The translations under genes were made by a program, and so were the position numbers. The notes under the pieces were generated by a model, which made no database searches, was not told the DNA's origin, and was given only the letters and a program-made list of their open reading frames with translations. A DNA stretch of 43,757 nt from Escherichia phage vB_EcoS_FP, in the sequence record MT682706.1, one strand, 5' to 3'. Shown in pieces: positions 1,163-43,757 of this stretch. Each line of letters starts with the position of its first letter. Position 1 is the first letter of the stretch.

Positions 1163-1707
1163 TGGGGATGTTTGATTTTAACGAAGATAAGCTGACTGAT
1201 GATGAGATTATGAAGATTGCCATGCGGGATGGACTTCCTCCGCTACGGGTTGCAATCAACGCTAATGGCTATCGCCAGTCTCAATCATTCTGGTGTAGTG
1301 TTGAGGAGTTGCTCTGCGCAAAGCTCGATAGCAAGTCAGGCGTAGTTTTGCGAAAGATTCACGGCCAGAGCAGGAGCGGTAAGGGGGTTGTCGGAATCAG
1401 ATCAACATATGAAGCGCTGAGAAAGGTAAAGCCGTTCGCCGGACTTAATGGAGTCATGCATGACCTGAAAAATAACATCCTACCATCGTTACAGGACGCA
1501 GGAATCATCTGCCTCATTGGAGATAAGATTTACGTGCATCCATACATGGTGGGCATGCATGCGATAGAAGTTGAAGAGTGGTGCGACAACTTGGTTGTTG
1601 ATGAGCACGCTAGTAGGCTACCATACCACTTGCGGTACAGTGAGGAAGAGGTGGAGAAGGCGATCGAGTTCTATCGGAAAGCTAAATCACTCCTTAATGG
1701 TAAATAG
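1162..1707 (+). CDS. ATPase-less paralog of the 40835-42418 P-loop ATPase (N- and C-terminal domains only)
   Basis: Stop/start overlap TAATG with upstream gene; MFDFNEDKL...LPPLRVAINANGYRQSQSFW and SGKGVVGIRS.YEA.RKVKPF...CLIGDK.Y blocks match the 538-aa ATPase; synonymous sites diverged. Confidence 0.7.
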   Translation: MGMFDFNEDKLTDDEIMKIAMRDGLPPLRVAINANGYRQSQSFWCSVEELLCAKLDSKSGVVLRKIHGQSRSGKGVVGIRSTYEALRKVKPFAGLNGVMHDLKNNILPSLQDAGIICLIGDKIYVHPYMVGMHAIEVEEWCDNLVVDEHASRLPYHLRYSEEEVEKAIEFYRKAKSLLNGK

Positions 1708-1752
1708 CACTTTTTGCTAAACCCGCTCCGGAGGGTTCTGTTATAGTTAGTT
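1703..1752 (+). promoter_or_regulatory. phage-specific promoter-like module (AATAGCAC..TTGCTAAA, 22 nt, TATAGTTA)
   Basis: Motif copy; TATAGT at 1743-1748. Confidence 0.5.
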
Positions 1753-1776
1753 CACACCAAACGAGAGGAAAACGAT

Positions 1777-1869
1777 ATGAAAGAGTATCCATCGAGCAAT
1801 CATCACAATGGGCATGTTATGCAGCTCTACCGCCACAATCTGAAAACCAAAGGGGTGCTTGGAAAATGA
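1777..1869 (+). CDS. small hypothetical protein (30 aa)
   Basis: GAGAGG RBS; directly downstream of motif; stop overlaps next start (ATGA). Confidence 0.4.
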
Positions 1870-2084
1870 TTACTATCAACCTGTCAGACAAGCAAGCCGC
1901 CGAGCTAAAGTCCATGCTGTCAATCTTTGAGAGGCCAAATGACCGAGCAATTTCAAAAGAGGTTATTACTCAAATCAACAATCAGCAGTTCGACGTCAGT
2001 GACTTTGAATCATCACGGCAGCACGAGTCACTAAGCGTCAATGCTGCATACCTTGCTAATTGGGATAAGGCCACTAAGAAATGA
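1866..2084 (+). CDS. hypothetical protein (72 aa)
   Basis: ORF track; translationally coupled ATGA overlaps on both sides. Confidence 0.5.
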
Positions 2085-2218
2085 TTTACATCCACACGTA
2101 CTACACCGGTAAGTTTAATAGCGTTAAGCATGTTCGGGTTCACGATACCTACGATAGTGCAAAGGCTCAATGGCTGGTCCTTGGTGGTGACATTAATTCA
2201 TATAAAATTGCCGAATAG
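2081..2218 (+). CDS. small hypothetical protein (45 aa)
   Basis: ATGA overlap with upstream ORF; stop TAG lies inside the next promoter motif. Confidence 0.4.
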   Translation: MIYIHTYYTGKFNSVKHVRVHDTYDSAKAQWLVLGGDINSYKIAE

Positions 2219-2262
2219 CACGAATTGCTAAAACAACATTGGGGTAATTTGATATAGTTACC
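2214..2262 (+). promoter_or_regulatory. phage-specific promoter-like module
   Basis: AATAGCACGAATTGCTAAA, 22 nt, TATAGTTACCCCATGGAAACGA. Confidence 0.55.
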
Positions 2263-2288
2263 CCATGGAAACGAAAGAGGAAGCGGAA

Positions 2289-2501
2289 ATGAAAATTGAA
2301 ATTATCGACGTGAATTATGTTACTGATGACCATGCGATTACCCTTGAAGAATGCGGCTTTAAAGTTGGCGACGTAGTTGATGTGTCCGGCGAATGCAAAG
2401 ATGGCAAACTGCCAATTAAGGCAATCCGTAAGACTAGGTTCGTCAATGTCGGAAATGAAATAAGTATTAGCAAGCATGAATACAAGGTGGTAGAGGAATG
2501 A
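2289..2501 (+). CDS. hypothetical protein (about 70 aa)
   Basis: ORF 2265-2501; internal ATG at 2289 has the better RBS AAGAGGAAG. Confidence 0.5.
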   Translation: MKIEIIDVNYVTDDHAITLEECGFKVGDVVDVSGECKDGKLPIKAIRKTRFVNVGNEISISKHEYKVVEE

Positions 2502-2677
2502 AATTTCAACAAGGCGACCCAAAACTCCAGGCTAACCACTTCGACGGCTACGCAACATTCATCATTGCCCAGGCTTGCGGGATGCGTGAAGAGCCACAGG
2601 TTCACACCATTCACTTAACCGAAGAACAAGCTAGAGAGTTGGCATACGAAATTCTTGAGCAATTGAATAAGATTTAA
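2498..2677 (+). CDS. hypothetical protein (59 aa)
   Basis: ATGA overlap with upstream ORF; RBS GAGGA. Confidence 0.5.
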   Translation: MKFQQGDPKLQANHFDGYATFIIAQACGMREEPQVHTIHLTEEQARELAYEILEQLNKI

Positions 2678-2726
2678 CGCGCCTAAAACGCATTCTAACG
2701 AACTATAATTTAAGTAAGGTGATTCT

Positions 2727-2888
2727 ATGATTAAGGTTGTTTATGTTGGCGAGAGTGATTATGTGGCGCTAATTCATCGTGGCGATGTGTTCTTCGCAAA
2801 GCTAAATGAGGATGGAGATTACTATATTGTAAAGAACAAGAATGGCGAAGATATTTACCTCTCAAAAGATGAGGTTATAATTTACTAA
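2727..2888 (+). CDS. hypothetical protein (53 aa)
   Basis: RBS AAGGTGA; own translation of the sequence. Confidence 0.45.
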   Translation: MIKVVYVGESDYVALIHRGDVFFAKLNEDGDYYIVKNKNGEDIYLSKDEVIIY

Positions 2889-3013
2889 TGGATAACTACG
2901 AATCACCAGTAGAGTGGTGTAAGCGAATGCAGGATGATGCCAAAACGGGCGAAGAGGCAATGGCTTACTACGAGCTGGCTAAAATCTGGATGGAGAGGGA
3001 GAAGAAACAATGA
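2888..3013 (+). CDS. hypothetical protein (41 aa)
   Basis: TAATG overlap with upstream ORF. Confidence 0.4.
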   Translation: MDNYESPVEWCKRMQDDAKTGEEAMAYYELAKIWMEREKKQ

Positions 3014-42418: not shown

Positions 42419-42449
42419 TACTTTCTCTCCGTATTGTTTCTGAGCGGCC

Positions 42450-42496
42450 ATTATATCAACGACCGCTTATAATTCATTATCAATTTGTGCTATTTA
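42450..42496 (-). promoter_or_regulatory. phage-specific promoter-like module (minus strand) for ATPase gene
   Basis: Minus strand: AAATAGCACAAATTGATAA, 22 nt, TATAAT, with the -10 overlapping the first in-frame ATG at 42451. Confidence 0.5.
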
Positions 42497-42847
42497 CAGG
42501 TATTGAGCCTCGAAGTGGTAGTCCCCACAAACTGTAACAAAGCCAACATCTTCGTCACGATATAGCTGCCATGCGCTACCCTCCTTATCGTAAATGTATC
42601 CAGCGCGCTGCCCAAGTCCAGCATGGAGATCTACTTGATATCGCTTCCCTTCAGTGAAGTACTTACGAATGGATGAGCGATGATTAACCTTTGTGCAGTA
42701 AATGGTCTTTGTCTTGATGTACTTACCGCGCTCCTCCAGGTTAACCCATTTCCCATCTTTCTTGATTTGTTCTACACCATCTTTAACGCGAGCTTTGTAT
42801 AGTACGTTTTCGTTGCTAATCCAGTTTTTGGTAGTCGTAGTAGTCAT
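42494..42847 (-). CDS. hypothetical protein (117 aa)
   Basis: ATG 42847 with RBS AAGGGTAAAAG; own promoter module. Confidence 0.55.
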   Translation of the reverse strand: MTTTTTKNWISNENVLYKARVKDGVEQIKKDGKWVNLEERGKYIKTKTIYCTKVNHRSSIRKYFTEGKRYQVDLHAGLGQRAGYIYDKEGSAWQLYRDEDVGFVTVCGDYHFEAQYL

Positions 42848-42869
42848 TTCTTTTACCCTTCGTTGTTTC

Positions 42870-42930
42870 GTTTCGATGAGATTAATATACATGAAAAGCC
42901 CCGAAGGGCTTTAGCAATTCGTGCTATTGC
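42870..42930 (-). promoter_or_regulatory. phage-specific promoter-like module (minus strand) containing a terminator-like hairpin in its spacer
   Basis: Minus strand: AATAGCACGAATTGCTAAAGCCCTTCGGGGCTTTTCATG-TATATTAATCTCATCGAAACGAAAC. Confidence 0.55.
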
Positions 42931-43072
42931 GTGCCTTTTCTATCGCCTTAAGCATGATTTCGTGACTTTCCAGTAAGTCCTCTCGGAACCAATCTCCGCA
43001 AGGCCATCCCTTACCGCTGTATGCGCTTACGACCTCAAGGTCGAAATAATTTATCTCAGATGGCAGGAGCAT
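42911..43072 (-). CDS. small hypothetical protein (53 aa)
   Basis: Own translation: MLLPSEINYFDLEVVSAYSGKGWPCGDWFREDLLESHEIMLKAIEKARNSTNC; ATGA overlap with upstream gene. Confidence 0.4.
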   Translation of the reverse strand: MLLPSEINYFDLEVVSAYSGKGWPCGDWFREDLLESHEIMLKAIEKARNSTNC

Positions 43073-43269
43073 CAGTAGTCCTCCTCATCTTCTTGTTCAA
43101 AGTCCCACACAATGTATTCGCCCAATCTTTGAATCTCAGCGCCAGAAAGAAAGACACCTAAAGCGAACGATCTGTCTTCATCAGTCTTAAAATACTCCAA
43201 AGGGTATCGTTCGTAAAATTTATTAATTAAATGTGCAATGTCAAACTTATCTGATTGCTTAATCATCAC
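43072..43269 (-). CDS. acidic small early protein (65 aa)
   Basis: ORF track; acidic C-terminus FEQEDEEDY. Confidence 0.5.
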   Translation of the reverse strand: MMIKQSDKFDIAHLINKFYERYPLEYFKTDEDRSFALGVFLSGAEIQRLGEYIVWDFEQEDEEDY

Positions 43270-43505
43270 TTCACCTCATCAAAAGTTGCAACGCCAGGAA
43301 TAAACATTTTAACCTTCCAGCCTGCGATCGCAATCCATCCAGAATCGTGCTTGTGCGGTCGCTCATCGCCATTAATCAACCATTCGTTCGGGATTGTCTT
43401 GCCGTTAATGATTAGAGGCTCAGCGTCGTATACAGAGCCCTTTACGAACGGTGTCAAAACCTTCTTGTCCGTGCTGGTGATACAGTTAGTGCAGCGAATT
43501 TTCAT
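43266..43505 (-). CDS. small early protein with CxxC motif (79 aa)
   Basis: ORF track; RBS GAGGATTGAG. Confidence 0.5.
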   Translation of the reverse strand: MKIRCTNCITSTDKKVLTPFVKGSVYDAEPLIINGKTIPNEWLINGDERPHKHDSGWIAIAGWKVKMFIPGVATFDEVK

Positions 43506-43515
43506 ATCTCAATCC

Positions 43516-43695
43516 TCAAATAAATGGTAGGCATTCGGCGCATCCAAGTCCATCACAGCACAGGAATTCATCCTCTGACTGGAATTGCTTAGCCAAGTCG
43601 ATGTCCAGCTTTCCGAGCAACACAAGTTCTGTGTAATCTTCGTTAAGCCCAATCAGTGCGCATTCGTTACGTAGTTCATCTTTATCAATCTTCAT
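43516..43695 (-). CDS. acidic small protein, first gene of minus-strand early operon (59 aa)
   Basis: Own translation: MKIDKDELRNECALIGLNEDYTELVLLGKLDIDLAKQFQSEDEFLCCDGLGCAECLPFI; RBS GAGGGGATAGAT; net charge about -9. Confidence 0.5.
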   Translation of the reverse strand: MKIDKDELRNECALIGLNEDYTELVLLGKLDIDLAKQFQSEDEFLCCDGLGCAECLPFI

Positions 43696-43699
43696 ATCT

Positions 43700-43757
43700 A
43701 TCCCCTCGTTTTTGATGAGCTAACTATAGCCTCGCCAGACAAACATGTCTTTAGCAA
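43700..43757 (-). promoter_or_regulatory. phage-specific promoter-like module (minus strand), truncated by window end and completed by bases 1-20
   Basis: Minus strand: TTGCTAAAG, 23 nt, TATAGTTAGCTCATCAAAAACGAGGGG; upstream half GGCACTTTT is the reverse complement of window positions 1-17. Confidence 0.5.

Follow-up and report, generated by a model that had tools for sequence, protein, structure and literature searches.

What is the conserved module that recurs in front of gene groups on both strands of Escherichia phage vB_EcoS_FP (sequence record MT682706.1), and by which protein is it read? The whole stretch of DNA that was analysed, in the following called the window, comprises 43,757 bases. 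A first-pass annotation had described about 17 copies of a promoter-like module with a short palindromic box and an atypical distance of 22-23 bp to a -10-like hexamer. Two phage proteins with a presumed helix-turn-helix (HTH) motif had been named as candidate readers of the box, and an RNA hairpin had been considered as an alternative. The module is a promoter cassette, the one that T1-like phages mainly employ for their early and middle genes. With a probability of roughly 60% we propose that this promoter belongs to class II and resembles micF; its box would be a marbox that is read by the host proteins Rob, MarA or SoxS. This host-activator explanation is ranked first, and an explanation based on a phage regulator is ranked second.

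Using looser matching and the flanking sequences, all 17 copies were recovered where the first-pass annotation had placed them, 12 on the plus strand and five, including a split copy, on the minus strand. The minus strand coordinates of that annotation (25283, 32560, 42450, 42870, and 43700) turned out to be -10, leader or start-codon parts of the recovered copies. Its upstream pattern AATAGCACKWWTTGYTAAA has 13 matches with at most two mismatches in the window, compared to 0.01 expected from shuffled sequences, and TATAGTTA occurs seven times, compared to 1.3 expected. The layout is rigid: the box ATAGCACnnWTTGYTAAA is followed after 20 nucleotides (nt) by a -10 element, mostly TATAGT, and often by the leader ATCGAAACGA. 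A -10-like hexamer is found at a fixed distance in 15 copies, namely 20 nt past the terminal TAAA in 12 copies, 21 nt in two, and 19 nt in one. The distance between TTGCTA and the hexamer is as it had been described, i.e., 22 bp (12 copies), 23 bp (two copies) or 21 bp (one copy). Three copies are weak or atypical (5318, 31549, and 37936; Table 1). An A is present 7 nt past the hexamer in 11 of the 15 copies, and the five perfect copies of the leader all lie right behind a module -10 and begin at this A. The box starts 69-89 nt upstream of the start codon, and the modules with a promoter are always co-oriented with the downstream gene. Thus, the fixed distance, the co-orientation and the conserved A support the view that the module is a promoter. 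The box also supplies the stop codon, TAG or TAA, of upstream genes. TAG at box positions 2-4 terminates the open reading frames (ORFs) 1162-1707, 4815-5321, 32605-33087(-), and 35180-35599, and two genuine ORFs, 38461-39039 and 42911-43072(-), read through the box and end with the C-terminus NSTNC, both as had been noticed before.

The box has the characteristics of a marbox, i.e., of the site bound by MarA, SoxS and Rob, monomeric activators of the AraC family with two HTH motifs each. In 1999 Martin et al. reportedly gave the marbox consensus AYnGCACnnWnnRYYAAAYn; searched as AYNGCACNNWNNRYYAAA, it has 16 matches with at most one mismatch in the window, ten of them perfect, compared to 1.94 expected. 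The consensus derived from chromatin immunoprecipitation, GCAHWWWWTGYYAAA (PMC6900184), was used unchanged and yielded 13 matches with at most one mismatch, compared to 1.55 expected. ATAGCAC-nnW-TTG-Y-TAAA agrees with the marbox at all specified positions but the final Y (position 19). Position counts were obtained from 89 promoter-associated sites out of eight phage sequences. Y is found at position 2 in 96% of the sites and at position 14 in 93%, W at position 10 in 100%, G at position 13 in 97%, and T at position 15 in 96%; position 7 carries C in 79 and T in nine sites, and the AAA is nearly invariant. A consensus that was derived de novo for phage TLS, aaATAGCACnnnTTGnTAAAA, is independent of our collection and likewise fits the marbox at each specified position save Y19. 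The marbox of the mar promoter itself, ATGCCACGTTTTGCTAAATC, which is a class I promoter with the box in reverse orientation, is almost identical to the "T" variant of the phage box, ATAGCACTTTTTGCTAAA.

The arrangement of box and -10 is that of class II promoters, which are defined in the literature by a forward box overlapping the -35 region, and forward marbox sites have been described to cluster near -41. At micF the forward box ACAGCACTGAATGTCAAAAC is followed after 18 bp by the -10 element TAGAAT. In the phages, the best -10 lies exactly 18 bp past the 20-bp box at 74 of 121 sites, compared to a null value of 1.8% at random positions, and 17-19 bp past the box at 89 of 121 sites, the most common hexamers being TATAGT, TATTAT, and TATAAT. 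The promoter-associated boxes all read GCAC...AAA toward the gene, as at micF. A -35 element is missing: the phage sites have on average 1.6 matches to TTGACA at a spacing of 17 bp, and a standard sigma70 scan of the early region revealed no excess of promoters (36 versus 42.9 in shuffled sequences). Class II promoters of Salmonella also have a canonical -10 and no recognizable -35 (mean of 1.9 matches), and structures of Rob or SoxS at micF show sigma70 displaced from the -35 region. Because the box is in forward orientation, overlaps the -35 position, and is 18 bp away from the -10 as in micF, the "22-23 bp spacing" represents normal class II geometry, with the position of the box near -41 relative to the transcript start calculated from the -10. 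Judged from the sequence, TTGCTA is therefore part of the activator site and not a -35 hexamer. In this respect, and also in the assumption that the module probably depends on a factor acting at the upstream box, the first-pass annotation is supported. A homolog of MarA, SoxS or Rob was not found in seven T1-like phage sequences with hmmsearch and phmmer with the filters switched off (best E value 0.19), and therefore an AraC-type reader of the box would have to be encoded by the host.

The likeness to MarA/SoxS/Rob-dependent class II promoters of E. coli and Salmonella, with micF as prototype and lpxC P2, lpxL P1 and rfaY P1 as further examples, comprises the forward marbox over the -35 region, the lack of a recognizable -35, the canonical -10, and, as at micF, the 18 bp in between. 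Several features differ. The phage promoters are located on the genome of a virulent phage, with 15-25 near-consensus copies per 45-50 kb. The phage box shows less degeneracy than the marboxes of the host, and it is joined to terminator hairpins and to a conserved leader. The role of an activator at the phage promoters is inferred from the sequence.

The first-pass annotation had suggested that the box is a palindrome that is bound by a phage-encoded HTH protein. According to this alternative, the dyad TAGCA-N5-TGCTA, centered near -42, would be the operator of a dimer of the Cro-like protein encoded by 32605-33087(-), which would activate transcription or shut it off later. Both modes have well-known counterparts, i.e., activation by lambda cI at PRM and by Mor and C of phage Mu, and shut-off by Cro. 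The Mu promoter Pm with Mor, the Mu late promoters with C, and lambda PRM with cI at OR2 all lack a -35 and have the activator at about -42. They share with the phage module a site near -41/-42 that replaces the -35 contact, the usage of host sigma70 polymerase, and the formation of a temporal class. However, these activators are phage-encoded dimers bound to dyads, whereas the box of the T1-like phages is asymmetric and matches the site of a monomeric host activator. The two arms of the dyad are one helical turn apart, and A3, T11, and T12, which are conserved beyond the needs of a marbox, would extend the dyad. However, the invariant G4 would have to pair with position 14, which varies in 35% of the 89 sites (58 with C, 25 with T, four with A, and two with G), and the conserved flanks are asymmetric, with positions 1, 7, and 17-18 lacking a symmetric counterpart. 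Also the strict orientation of the box relative to transcription argues against a symmetric operator. Therefore, the dyad looks incidental, and the asymmetric marbox is the better explanation.

Several points speak for the Cro-like protein. It has a single HTH motif, belongs to phrog_2856 ("transcriptional regulator", E value 2.9e-84), and is a homolog of Rtp52 and of T1 gp23. Its gene is conserved in essentially all Drexlerviridae (824 phage records). The 2006 genome paper on phage Rtp (J Bacteriol) is said to describe ten conserved inverted repeats upstream of genes and to assign them to the putative regulator Rtp52, and the GenBank record of Rtp, which annotates rtp52 as putative transcriptional regulator, is consistent with this. 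One box is located in the regulator's own leader, in a switch-like layout with overlapping -10 elements of the regulator and helicase promoters. However, residues 66-75, which form the recognition helix, all lie outside of the columns that are at least 90% conserved in 38 homologs, and the box is unchanged in phages with a regulator that is only 40-52% identical, including Vibrio phage Vc1. As the recognition helix varies and the box is invariant from E. coli phages to a Vibrio phage, the Cro-like protein is a poor candidate for the reader. In addition, RB43-like myoviruses carry the cassette and appear to lack the regulator, and if every early promoter depended on a phage protein, only the regulator's own promoter would fire at the start of infection. 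Taken together, we regard the Cro-like protein as an improbable reader of the box. The second candidate of the first-pass annotation, 36805-37935, is not an HTH regulator but a DNA repair exonuclease of the metallophosphatase type (phrog_704, E value 2.9e-152), and its match to GerE is insignificant (E value 0.053). The interpretation as a palindrome read by a phage HTH protein has been weakened.

Several further features of the Cro-like protein and its gene were observed. For the predicted structure the T1 row was excluded from the alignment. The best conserved parts of the protein are located outside of the HTH motif, i.e., residues 1-30, which include a basic N-terminal arm that is predicted to be disordered (DKRTINGNNGTxRGxDKKxRKRP), and residues 95-125 with the C-terminal segment FCRPDLxFDxNGKPLTxRC; either of the two might contact another protein or a nucleic acid. 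The regulator and helicase genes diverge from the region 33088-33189. The regulator promoter on the minus strand (TTGTCT-17-TACAAT, 33169-33141) overlaps the -10 of the box promoter of the helicase on the plus strand, and the same overlap is present in T1 with TATTAT and TATAAT as -10 elements. The two promoters are probably mutually exclusive and would thus form a switch. A second repeat, TACGCA(A/T/G)TGGTTACAT, has four copies in the window, all on the plus strand (277-292, 492-507, 25421-25436, and 25617-25632). This repeat, TACGCAnTGGTTACAT, is confined to the two largest non-coding regions, the left end and the gap between cor and the recombination genes. Its copies in the cor-recE region have been kept in Rtp and SU57 and have diverged in T1. 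It could be an iteron of a replication origin or the true site of the Cro-like regulator.

The stem-loops of the cassette bear on the question whether the box acts as RNA. The segment that begins behind the box and extends slightly beyond the -10 has a minimum free energy of -9 kcal/mol or lower in 46% of the sites, compared to 10% of controls from random phage sequence. A stem, e.g., GGGGTAA...TTACCCC, encloses the -10 in 54 of 91 sites, and nine of 91 sites contain a terminator with a T-run inside the 18-bp spacer, one of them being the copy at 42927. Hairpins are thus common in the module and variable in position; a single conserved hairpin in a fixed register around the -10 was considered and rejected, as each position is paired in only about one third of the sites. 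According to the RNA explanation, the box itself would form the hairpin UAGCA-N5-UGCUA at gene ends and serve as a processing or stability signal for the upstream transcripts. The box indeed overlaps stop codons at the 3'-ends of genes, and TGTTA variants would retain a G-U pair. However, a stem of 5 bp is marginal, and the variants TGATA (14102, 32608, and 42493) and AGCTA (25343) break the pairing without a compensating change. Furthermore, the distance of the box to a DNA promoter element is fixed, the genuine stem-loops are located in the spacer/-10 region, and Rfam did not find any RNA family on a module, a tRNA being the only one in the window. An RNA function of the box is therefore highly improbable, and this reading was rejected.

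The stem-loops resemble those of the PeSL (promoter-early stem-loop) cassettes of the T4-type phages RB49 and phi1 (Arbiol et al., 2010, PMC2839356). PeSL stem-loops are located between -35 and -10 or over the -10, often have the form GGGG...CCCC with G-T pairs, and experiments showed that they terminate or attenuate transcription coming from upstream; ORFans are shuffled by means of the cassettes (PMC2839356), with mini-circles as intermediates. Both types of cassette are intergenic composites of an upstream stop codon, a promoter, a stem-loop, a Shine-Dalgarno sequence, and an ATG, both flank small ORFans or variable genes, and possible signs of cassette exchange are seen in the T1-like phages, too. 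In contrast, the promoter of a PeSL cassette follows the sigma70 consensus and has an A/T-rich region upstream, whereas the module described here lacks the -35 and has a marbox instead.

The following mechanism is proposed. The cassette begins with the stop codon of the upstream gene, followed by a forward 20-bp marbox in place of a -35 hexamer, and an 18-bp variable spacer, often with a G+C-rich stem-loop, either a terminator in the spacer or a hairpin enclosing the -10. Next come the sigma70 -10 (TATAGT), a C-rich discriminator, the putative transcript start at the A of AUCGAAACGA, and a Shine-Dalgarno sequence with the start codon, which is about 77 nt away from where the box starts. A monomeric host activator of the AraC/XylS family would occupy the box and attract host sigma70 RNA polymerase. 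The main candidate would be Rob, a constitutively abundant protein, and MarA or SoxS (RamA in Klebsiella) may contribute under stress. The stem-loops would insulate the cassettes against upstream transcription, as in the case of PeSL cassettes. The conserved cassette of about 70 nt would also be a portable linker, so that genes can move along with their own promoter.

The first about 11 nt of the predicted transcripts are conserved, with AUCGAAACGAA in the enterobacterial phages and AACGAAACGAA in Vibrio phage Vc1, and the leaders listed in Table 1 are preceded by the C-rich discriminator TACCCC. Possible roles of this leader are in promoter escape, mRNA stability or translation.

Another alternative does without a specific activator. 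The -10 alone, in part as an extended -10, would suffice, and the box would be an UP-like element for the alpha subunit of RNA polymerase, a stoperator-like block or mainly a patch of homology for the recombinational shuffling of gene cassettes. These options stem from the PeSL model and from the paper on TLS, in which stoperators, enhancer-binding sites or UP-like elements have been proposed (PMC11447400). Extended -10 elements are indeed not rare, as 28 of the 89 sites (31%) have TG at -15/-14. The remaining 69% lack both a -35 and TGn; as promoters they would be very weak unaided. The module also behaves like a cassette: an extra ORF starting at 27290 is flanked by two boxes, compared to a single box in SU57 and Rtp, the cassette together with a homologous ORFan is found in Lw1/RB43-like phages as well, and such shuffling has been shown for PeSL cassettes (PMC2839356). 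However, a homology patch requires neither a fixed distance of 18 bp to the -10 nor a degeneracy of the marbox type (W10, Y14). UP elements consist of A/T tracts, which is not the case for the invariant core of the box, GCAC...TG. Stoperators work in either orientation within transcription units, whereas the boxes are found at a fixed promoter position. Thus, we consider it rather unlikely that the promoters work without a specific activator, but less unlikely than the RNA explanation.

Several points weigh against the dependence on Rob, MarA or SoxS. It would be surprising if a very fast lytic phage depended in unstressed cells on activators that are scarce (MarA and SoxS) or largely sequestered (Rob), and the sites with a TGn extended -10 might fire without any activator. 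The near invariance of A3, T11, and T12 goes beyond what the marbox consensus demands, and the Y at position 19 is not kept; this extra constraint possibly indicates a second reader or a specialized preference. The box in Vibrio phage Vc1 would presuppose a Vibrio protein of the MarA/SoxS/Rob type with equal specificity. As the marbox consensus was used for some of the site collections, the agreement at the specified positions is partly circular, a concern that is lessened by the de novo consensus of TLS and the pattern of the first-pass annotation, which give the same picture. A search of the available literature revealed no binding, transcript-start, RNA-seq or expression data for T1-like phages or Drexlerviridae. 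A combination of both readers is conceivable as well: a host factor would turn on the promoters, and the phage protein would compete for the site later.

Four other promoter types were considered and rejected. A sigma54 promoter (TGGCAC-N5-TTGC) is not compatible with the sequence TAGCAC-N3-TTGC, which lacks the GG and has a spacing that is 2 bp too short, and this model would leave the conserved -10 lying 20 nt further downstream unexplained. The T4 middle promoters have a MotA box centered at -30, about 12 bp from the -10, and need MotA and AsiA. They also combine a -10 with an upstream box in place of the -35, and their box is superficially similar (TGCTT), but the position at -30 differs, and the phage has neither MotA nor AsiA. 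TTGCTA as a true -35 with another -10 located 17 bp downstream was rejected because the hexamers at this position are poor and not conserved. In a promoter of the MerR type with a long spacer a conserved dyad would be expected in the spacer, and it is lacking.

The copies of the module are listed in Table 1. They precede the small genes at both genome arms, the cor lipoprotein gene, the erf/ssb group, several ORFan groups, and the genes for primase, helicase, and a DUF3987 helicase. They also precede two insertions in the structural cluster, the HNH-like ORF 5390 and ORF 14179.

Table 1. Coordinates and features of the module copies in the window (transcript starts and driven genes are predictions).
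Feature	Strand	Box	Spacer	-10	Putative +1 or leader	Gene downstream or driven	Context
Module 1704..1754	+	1704-1723 ATAGCACTTTTTGCTAAACC	18 bp, with hairpin	TATAGT 1742-1747	+1 A1754	Small ORF from 1777	TAG 1705-1707 stops gene 1162-1707
Module 2215..2265	+	2215-2234		TATAGT 2253-2258, inside stem GGGGTAA/TTACCCC	+1 A2265	ORF from 2289	
Module 3150..3200	+	3150-3169		TATAAT 3188-3193		Small early genes; ATG at about 3209 by eye, 3182-3424 in the ORF list	
Module 5318..5368	+	5318-5337, perfect marbox match		GGTAAT 5356-5361, weak		ORF 5390-5902, starts with MNWHDYFEY like Rtp genes annotated as HNH endonuclease	Box holds the TerS stop codon; -10 at this place in Rtp is GATAAT
Module 14102..14152	+	14102-14121 ACAGCACTTTTTGATAAAGC		TATAGT 14140-14145	Leader ATCGAAACGA 14152-14161	ORF 14179	Within structural cluster, right past terminator behind major tail protein gene
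Module 25292..25343	-	25343-25324 ATAGCACGAATAGCTAAAGA; dyad broken, marbox intact	19 bp	TATTAT 25304-25299	Leader ATCGAAACGA 25292-25283	cor-type lipoprotein gene, start 25258	
Module 27213..27263	+	27213-27232		TATATT 27251-27256		ORF from 27290	Right after recE (exonuclease VIII)
Module 27790..27840	+	27790-27809		TATAGT 27828-27833		erf recombinase (27863) and ssb	
Box 31549..31568	+	31549-31568		None downstream			Reversed relative to minus strand tail-fibre gene (ATG at about 31524)
Module 32558..32608	-	32608-32589		TATAGT 32570-32565, inside 11-bp terminator-like hairpin 32586-32562, then T-run		Primase gene, start 32539	3'-end of Cro-like regulator gene
Module 33100..33149	+	33100-33119 ATAGCATTTTTTGTTAAAAG	17 bp	TAATAT 33137-33142		Helicase gene, start 33189	Regulator/helicase divergent region; box within the regulator's leader
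Module 35596..35646	+	35596-35615		TATAGT 35634-35639	Leader ATCGAAACGA 35646-35655	ORF 35676	Box with stop codon TAG of VRR-NUC gene
Degenerate box 37936..37955	+	37936-37955 ATAGCACTTTTGTTAATA, 1-nt deletion	Hairpin GCCTCAAAGGATTGAGGC	Weak		ORF 38009	Intact box at this position in SU57
Module 39023..39073	+	39023-39042		TATAGT 39061-39066	Leader ATCGAAACGA 39073-39082	ORF 39108	Box read through by upstream protein ending with NSTNC
Module 42443..42493	-	42493-42474 ATAGCACAAATTGATAATGA		TATAAT 42455-42450, inside stem GCGGTC/GGCCGC containing a G-T pair		DUF3987-type helicase gene, start 42418	
Module 42877..42927	-	42927-42908	18 bp, with intrinsic terminator GCCCTTCGGGGCTTTT	TATATT 42889-42884	Leader ATCGAAACGA 42877-42868	ORF 42847	Upstream protein ends with NSTNC
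Split module, 3' part 43716..43757	-	TTGCTAAAGA 43757-43748	19 bp	TATAGT 43728-43723		ORF 43695	
Split module, 5' half 1..10	-	Bases 10-1 ATGGCACTTT, continued from 43757 downward TTGCTAAAgaca...TATAGT					Compare SU57 45983(-)

As one module is split over both ends of the window, the window is a circularly permuted version of a whole genome, namely the complete genome of about 43.8 kb of an Rtp/T1-like siphophage (Drexlerviridae, Braunvirinae). The region from the terminase to the protease is 84-91% identical to that of the Escherichia phages DTL, Rtp, SU57 and relatives, the right half of the window matches OzMSK, BEK6, and SU57, and the gene order is as in Rtp and SU57. The tRNA gene found by Rfam is located at 4244-4318 (+) in the early region of the left arm (RF00005, 55 bits), and SU57 has a tRNA-Arg at the corresponding place.

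A motif search in related phages, which the first-pass annotation had suggested as a check, showed that SU57, Rtp, and T1 each carry about 20-25 copies with the same box, spacing, -10, and leader. Four distant relatives, one of them Vibrio phage Vc1, also have the module around their regulator gene. The element itself has been published already. The re-annotation of TLS describes a 21-nt direct repeat, with the consensus given above, in 21 copies that are oriented with transcription and located about 76 nt upstream of start codons, and reports it also for T1, Rtp, and Rogue1 (Phage 2024, PMC11447400). Only three sigma70-like promoters were found by the authors, who suggested stoperators, an unknown enhancer-binding site or UP-like elements (PMC11447400). 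The TLS repeat and the module of the window are the same element: the 17 copies of the window agree with it in consensus, in orientation with transcription and in the distance to the start codon, and the same A, T, and G subgroups (AAA, TTT, and GAA) are found. While the function of the repeat was left open for TLS and the Rtp repeats are said to have been assigned to a phage regulator, it is linked here to the marbox. Likewise, the fixed 18 bp to the -10 and the missing -35 are linked to the repeat here, which is the case neither for TLS nor, reportedly, in the Rtp paper. A limited literature search did not reveal a paper joining marbox, MarA or SoxS with T1-like phages, and, judged by the searchable literature, the marbox reading is a new one.

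The genome comparison yielded possible traces of cassette exchange. In the window an extra ORF (start 27290, 149 amino acids) is located between two modules, whereas only one module is found between recE and erf of SU57 and Rtp, with no counterpart of this ORF annotated there. The region 27213-27863 looks like a cassette insertion by recombination between modules. In addition, ORFs with an MNWH... N-terminus, as in Rtp genes annotated as HNH endonucleases, are found directly behind boxes. The complete module (box, TATAGTTACCCC, and ATCGAAAC) is present beside ORFans in the early region of Lw1/RB16/RB43-like phages (T4-type Pseudotevenvirus) and related myoviruses of 176-179 kb, and the Lw1 ORFan gp016 is 42-48% identical to genes on T1-like contigs. 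As the counts of organisms with the Cro-like regulator match the T1-like set and leave no room for RB43-like records, these myoviruses appear to be devoid of the regulator. A promoter that functions after the transfer to an unrelated phage would fit the dependence on a host factor. In Escherichia phage Lw1 (NC_021344.2) the boxes start at 10295(-) and 10911(-), and further copies start at 11522(-) and 2930(-) of two other sequences, L080 and L088, respectively. In two myovirus copies a terminator stretches the distance from box to -10 to 29 bp, i.e., by about one additional helical turn.

The late genes had been reported to use ordinary sigma70 promoters at about 4784, 10400, and 11460. The main structural operons indeed follow terminators and a perfect TATAAT at these positions; however, the -35 hexamers are weak or moderate, so that the contrast to the module promoters is only a rough one. 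Boxes in reverse orientation were observed at late promoters. The box at 31549 covers about +1 to +18 of an extended -10 (TGcTACAAT, 31577-31572), a position typical of a repressor site, and this arrangement over the predicted start of the tail-fibre transcript is kept in Rtp, SU57, and T1. T1 has further reverse boxes inside late promoters at 15071-15085 and 18835-18849. One reverse box of T1 is located in the spacer of the promoter TTGACG-16-TATTAT upstream of ORF 15140-16099, the counterpart of Rtp27 and of the major capsid protein of SU57. MarA represses purA, hdeA, and similar promoters via reverse boxes that overlap the core promoter. It is a speculation that the same factor could hold the late genes down at the reverse boxes.

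T1-like phages are among the most common coliphages and Klebsiella phages, they are notorious contaminants of laboratories and fermenters, and they are candidates for phage therapy. The timing of transcription in T1-like phages with host polymerase alone is a stated problem, which becomes directly testable with the marbox reading. If this reading is true, early phage expression would be coupled to the host regulon for antibiotic, oxidative, and bile stress, which would have a bearing on phage-antibiotic combinations and on the behavior of the phages in the gut, and a set of compact, insulated, activator-dependent promoter cassettes would become available. For the Drexlerviridae at large, a whole family of virulent phages, we tentatively suggest, although the odds are somewhat against it, that early and middle activation may have been handed over to the host mar/sox/rob system by means of 15-25 near-consensus class II marboxes per genome. 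In this case the cassette would be able to spread among unrelated phage families because only a host factor is needed, and bile salts, salicylate, oxidants, and antibiotics, the signals that activate Rob, MarA, and SoxS, would influence phage gene expression and the timing of the burst. The reverse boxes may keep the late genes off until replication multiplies the boxes and titrates the factor.

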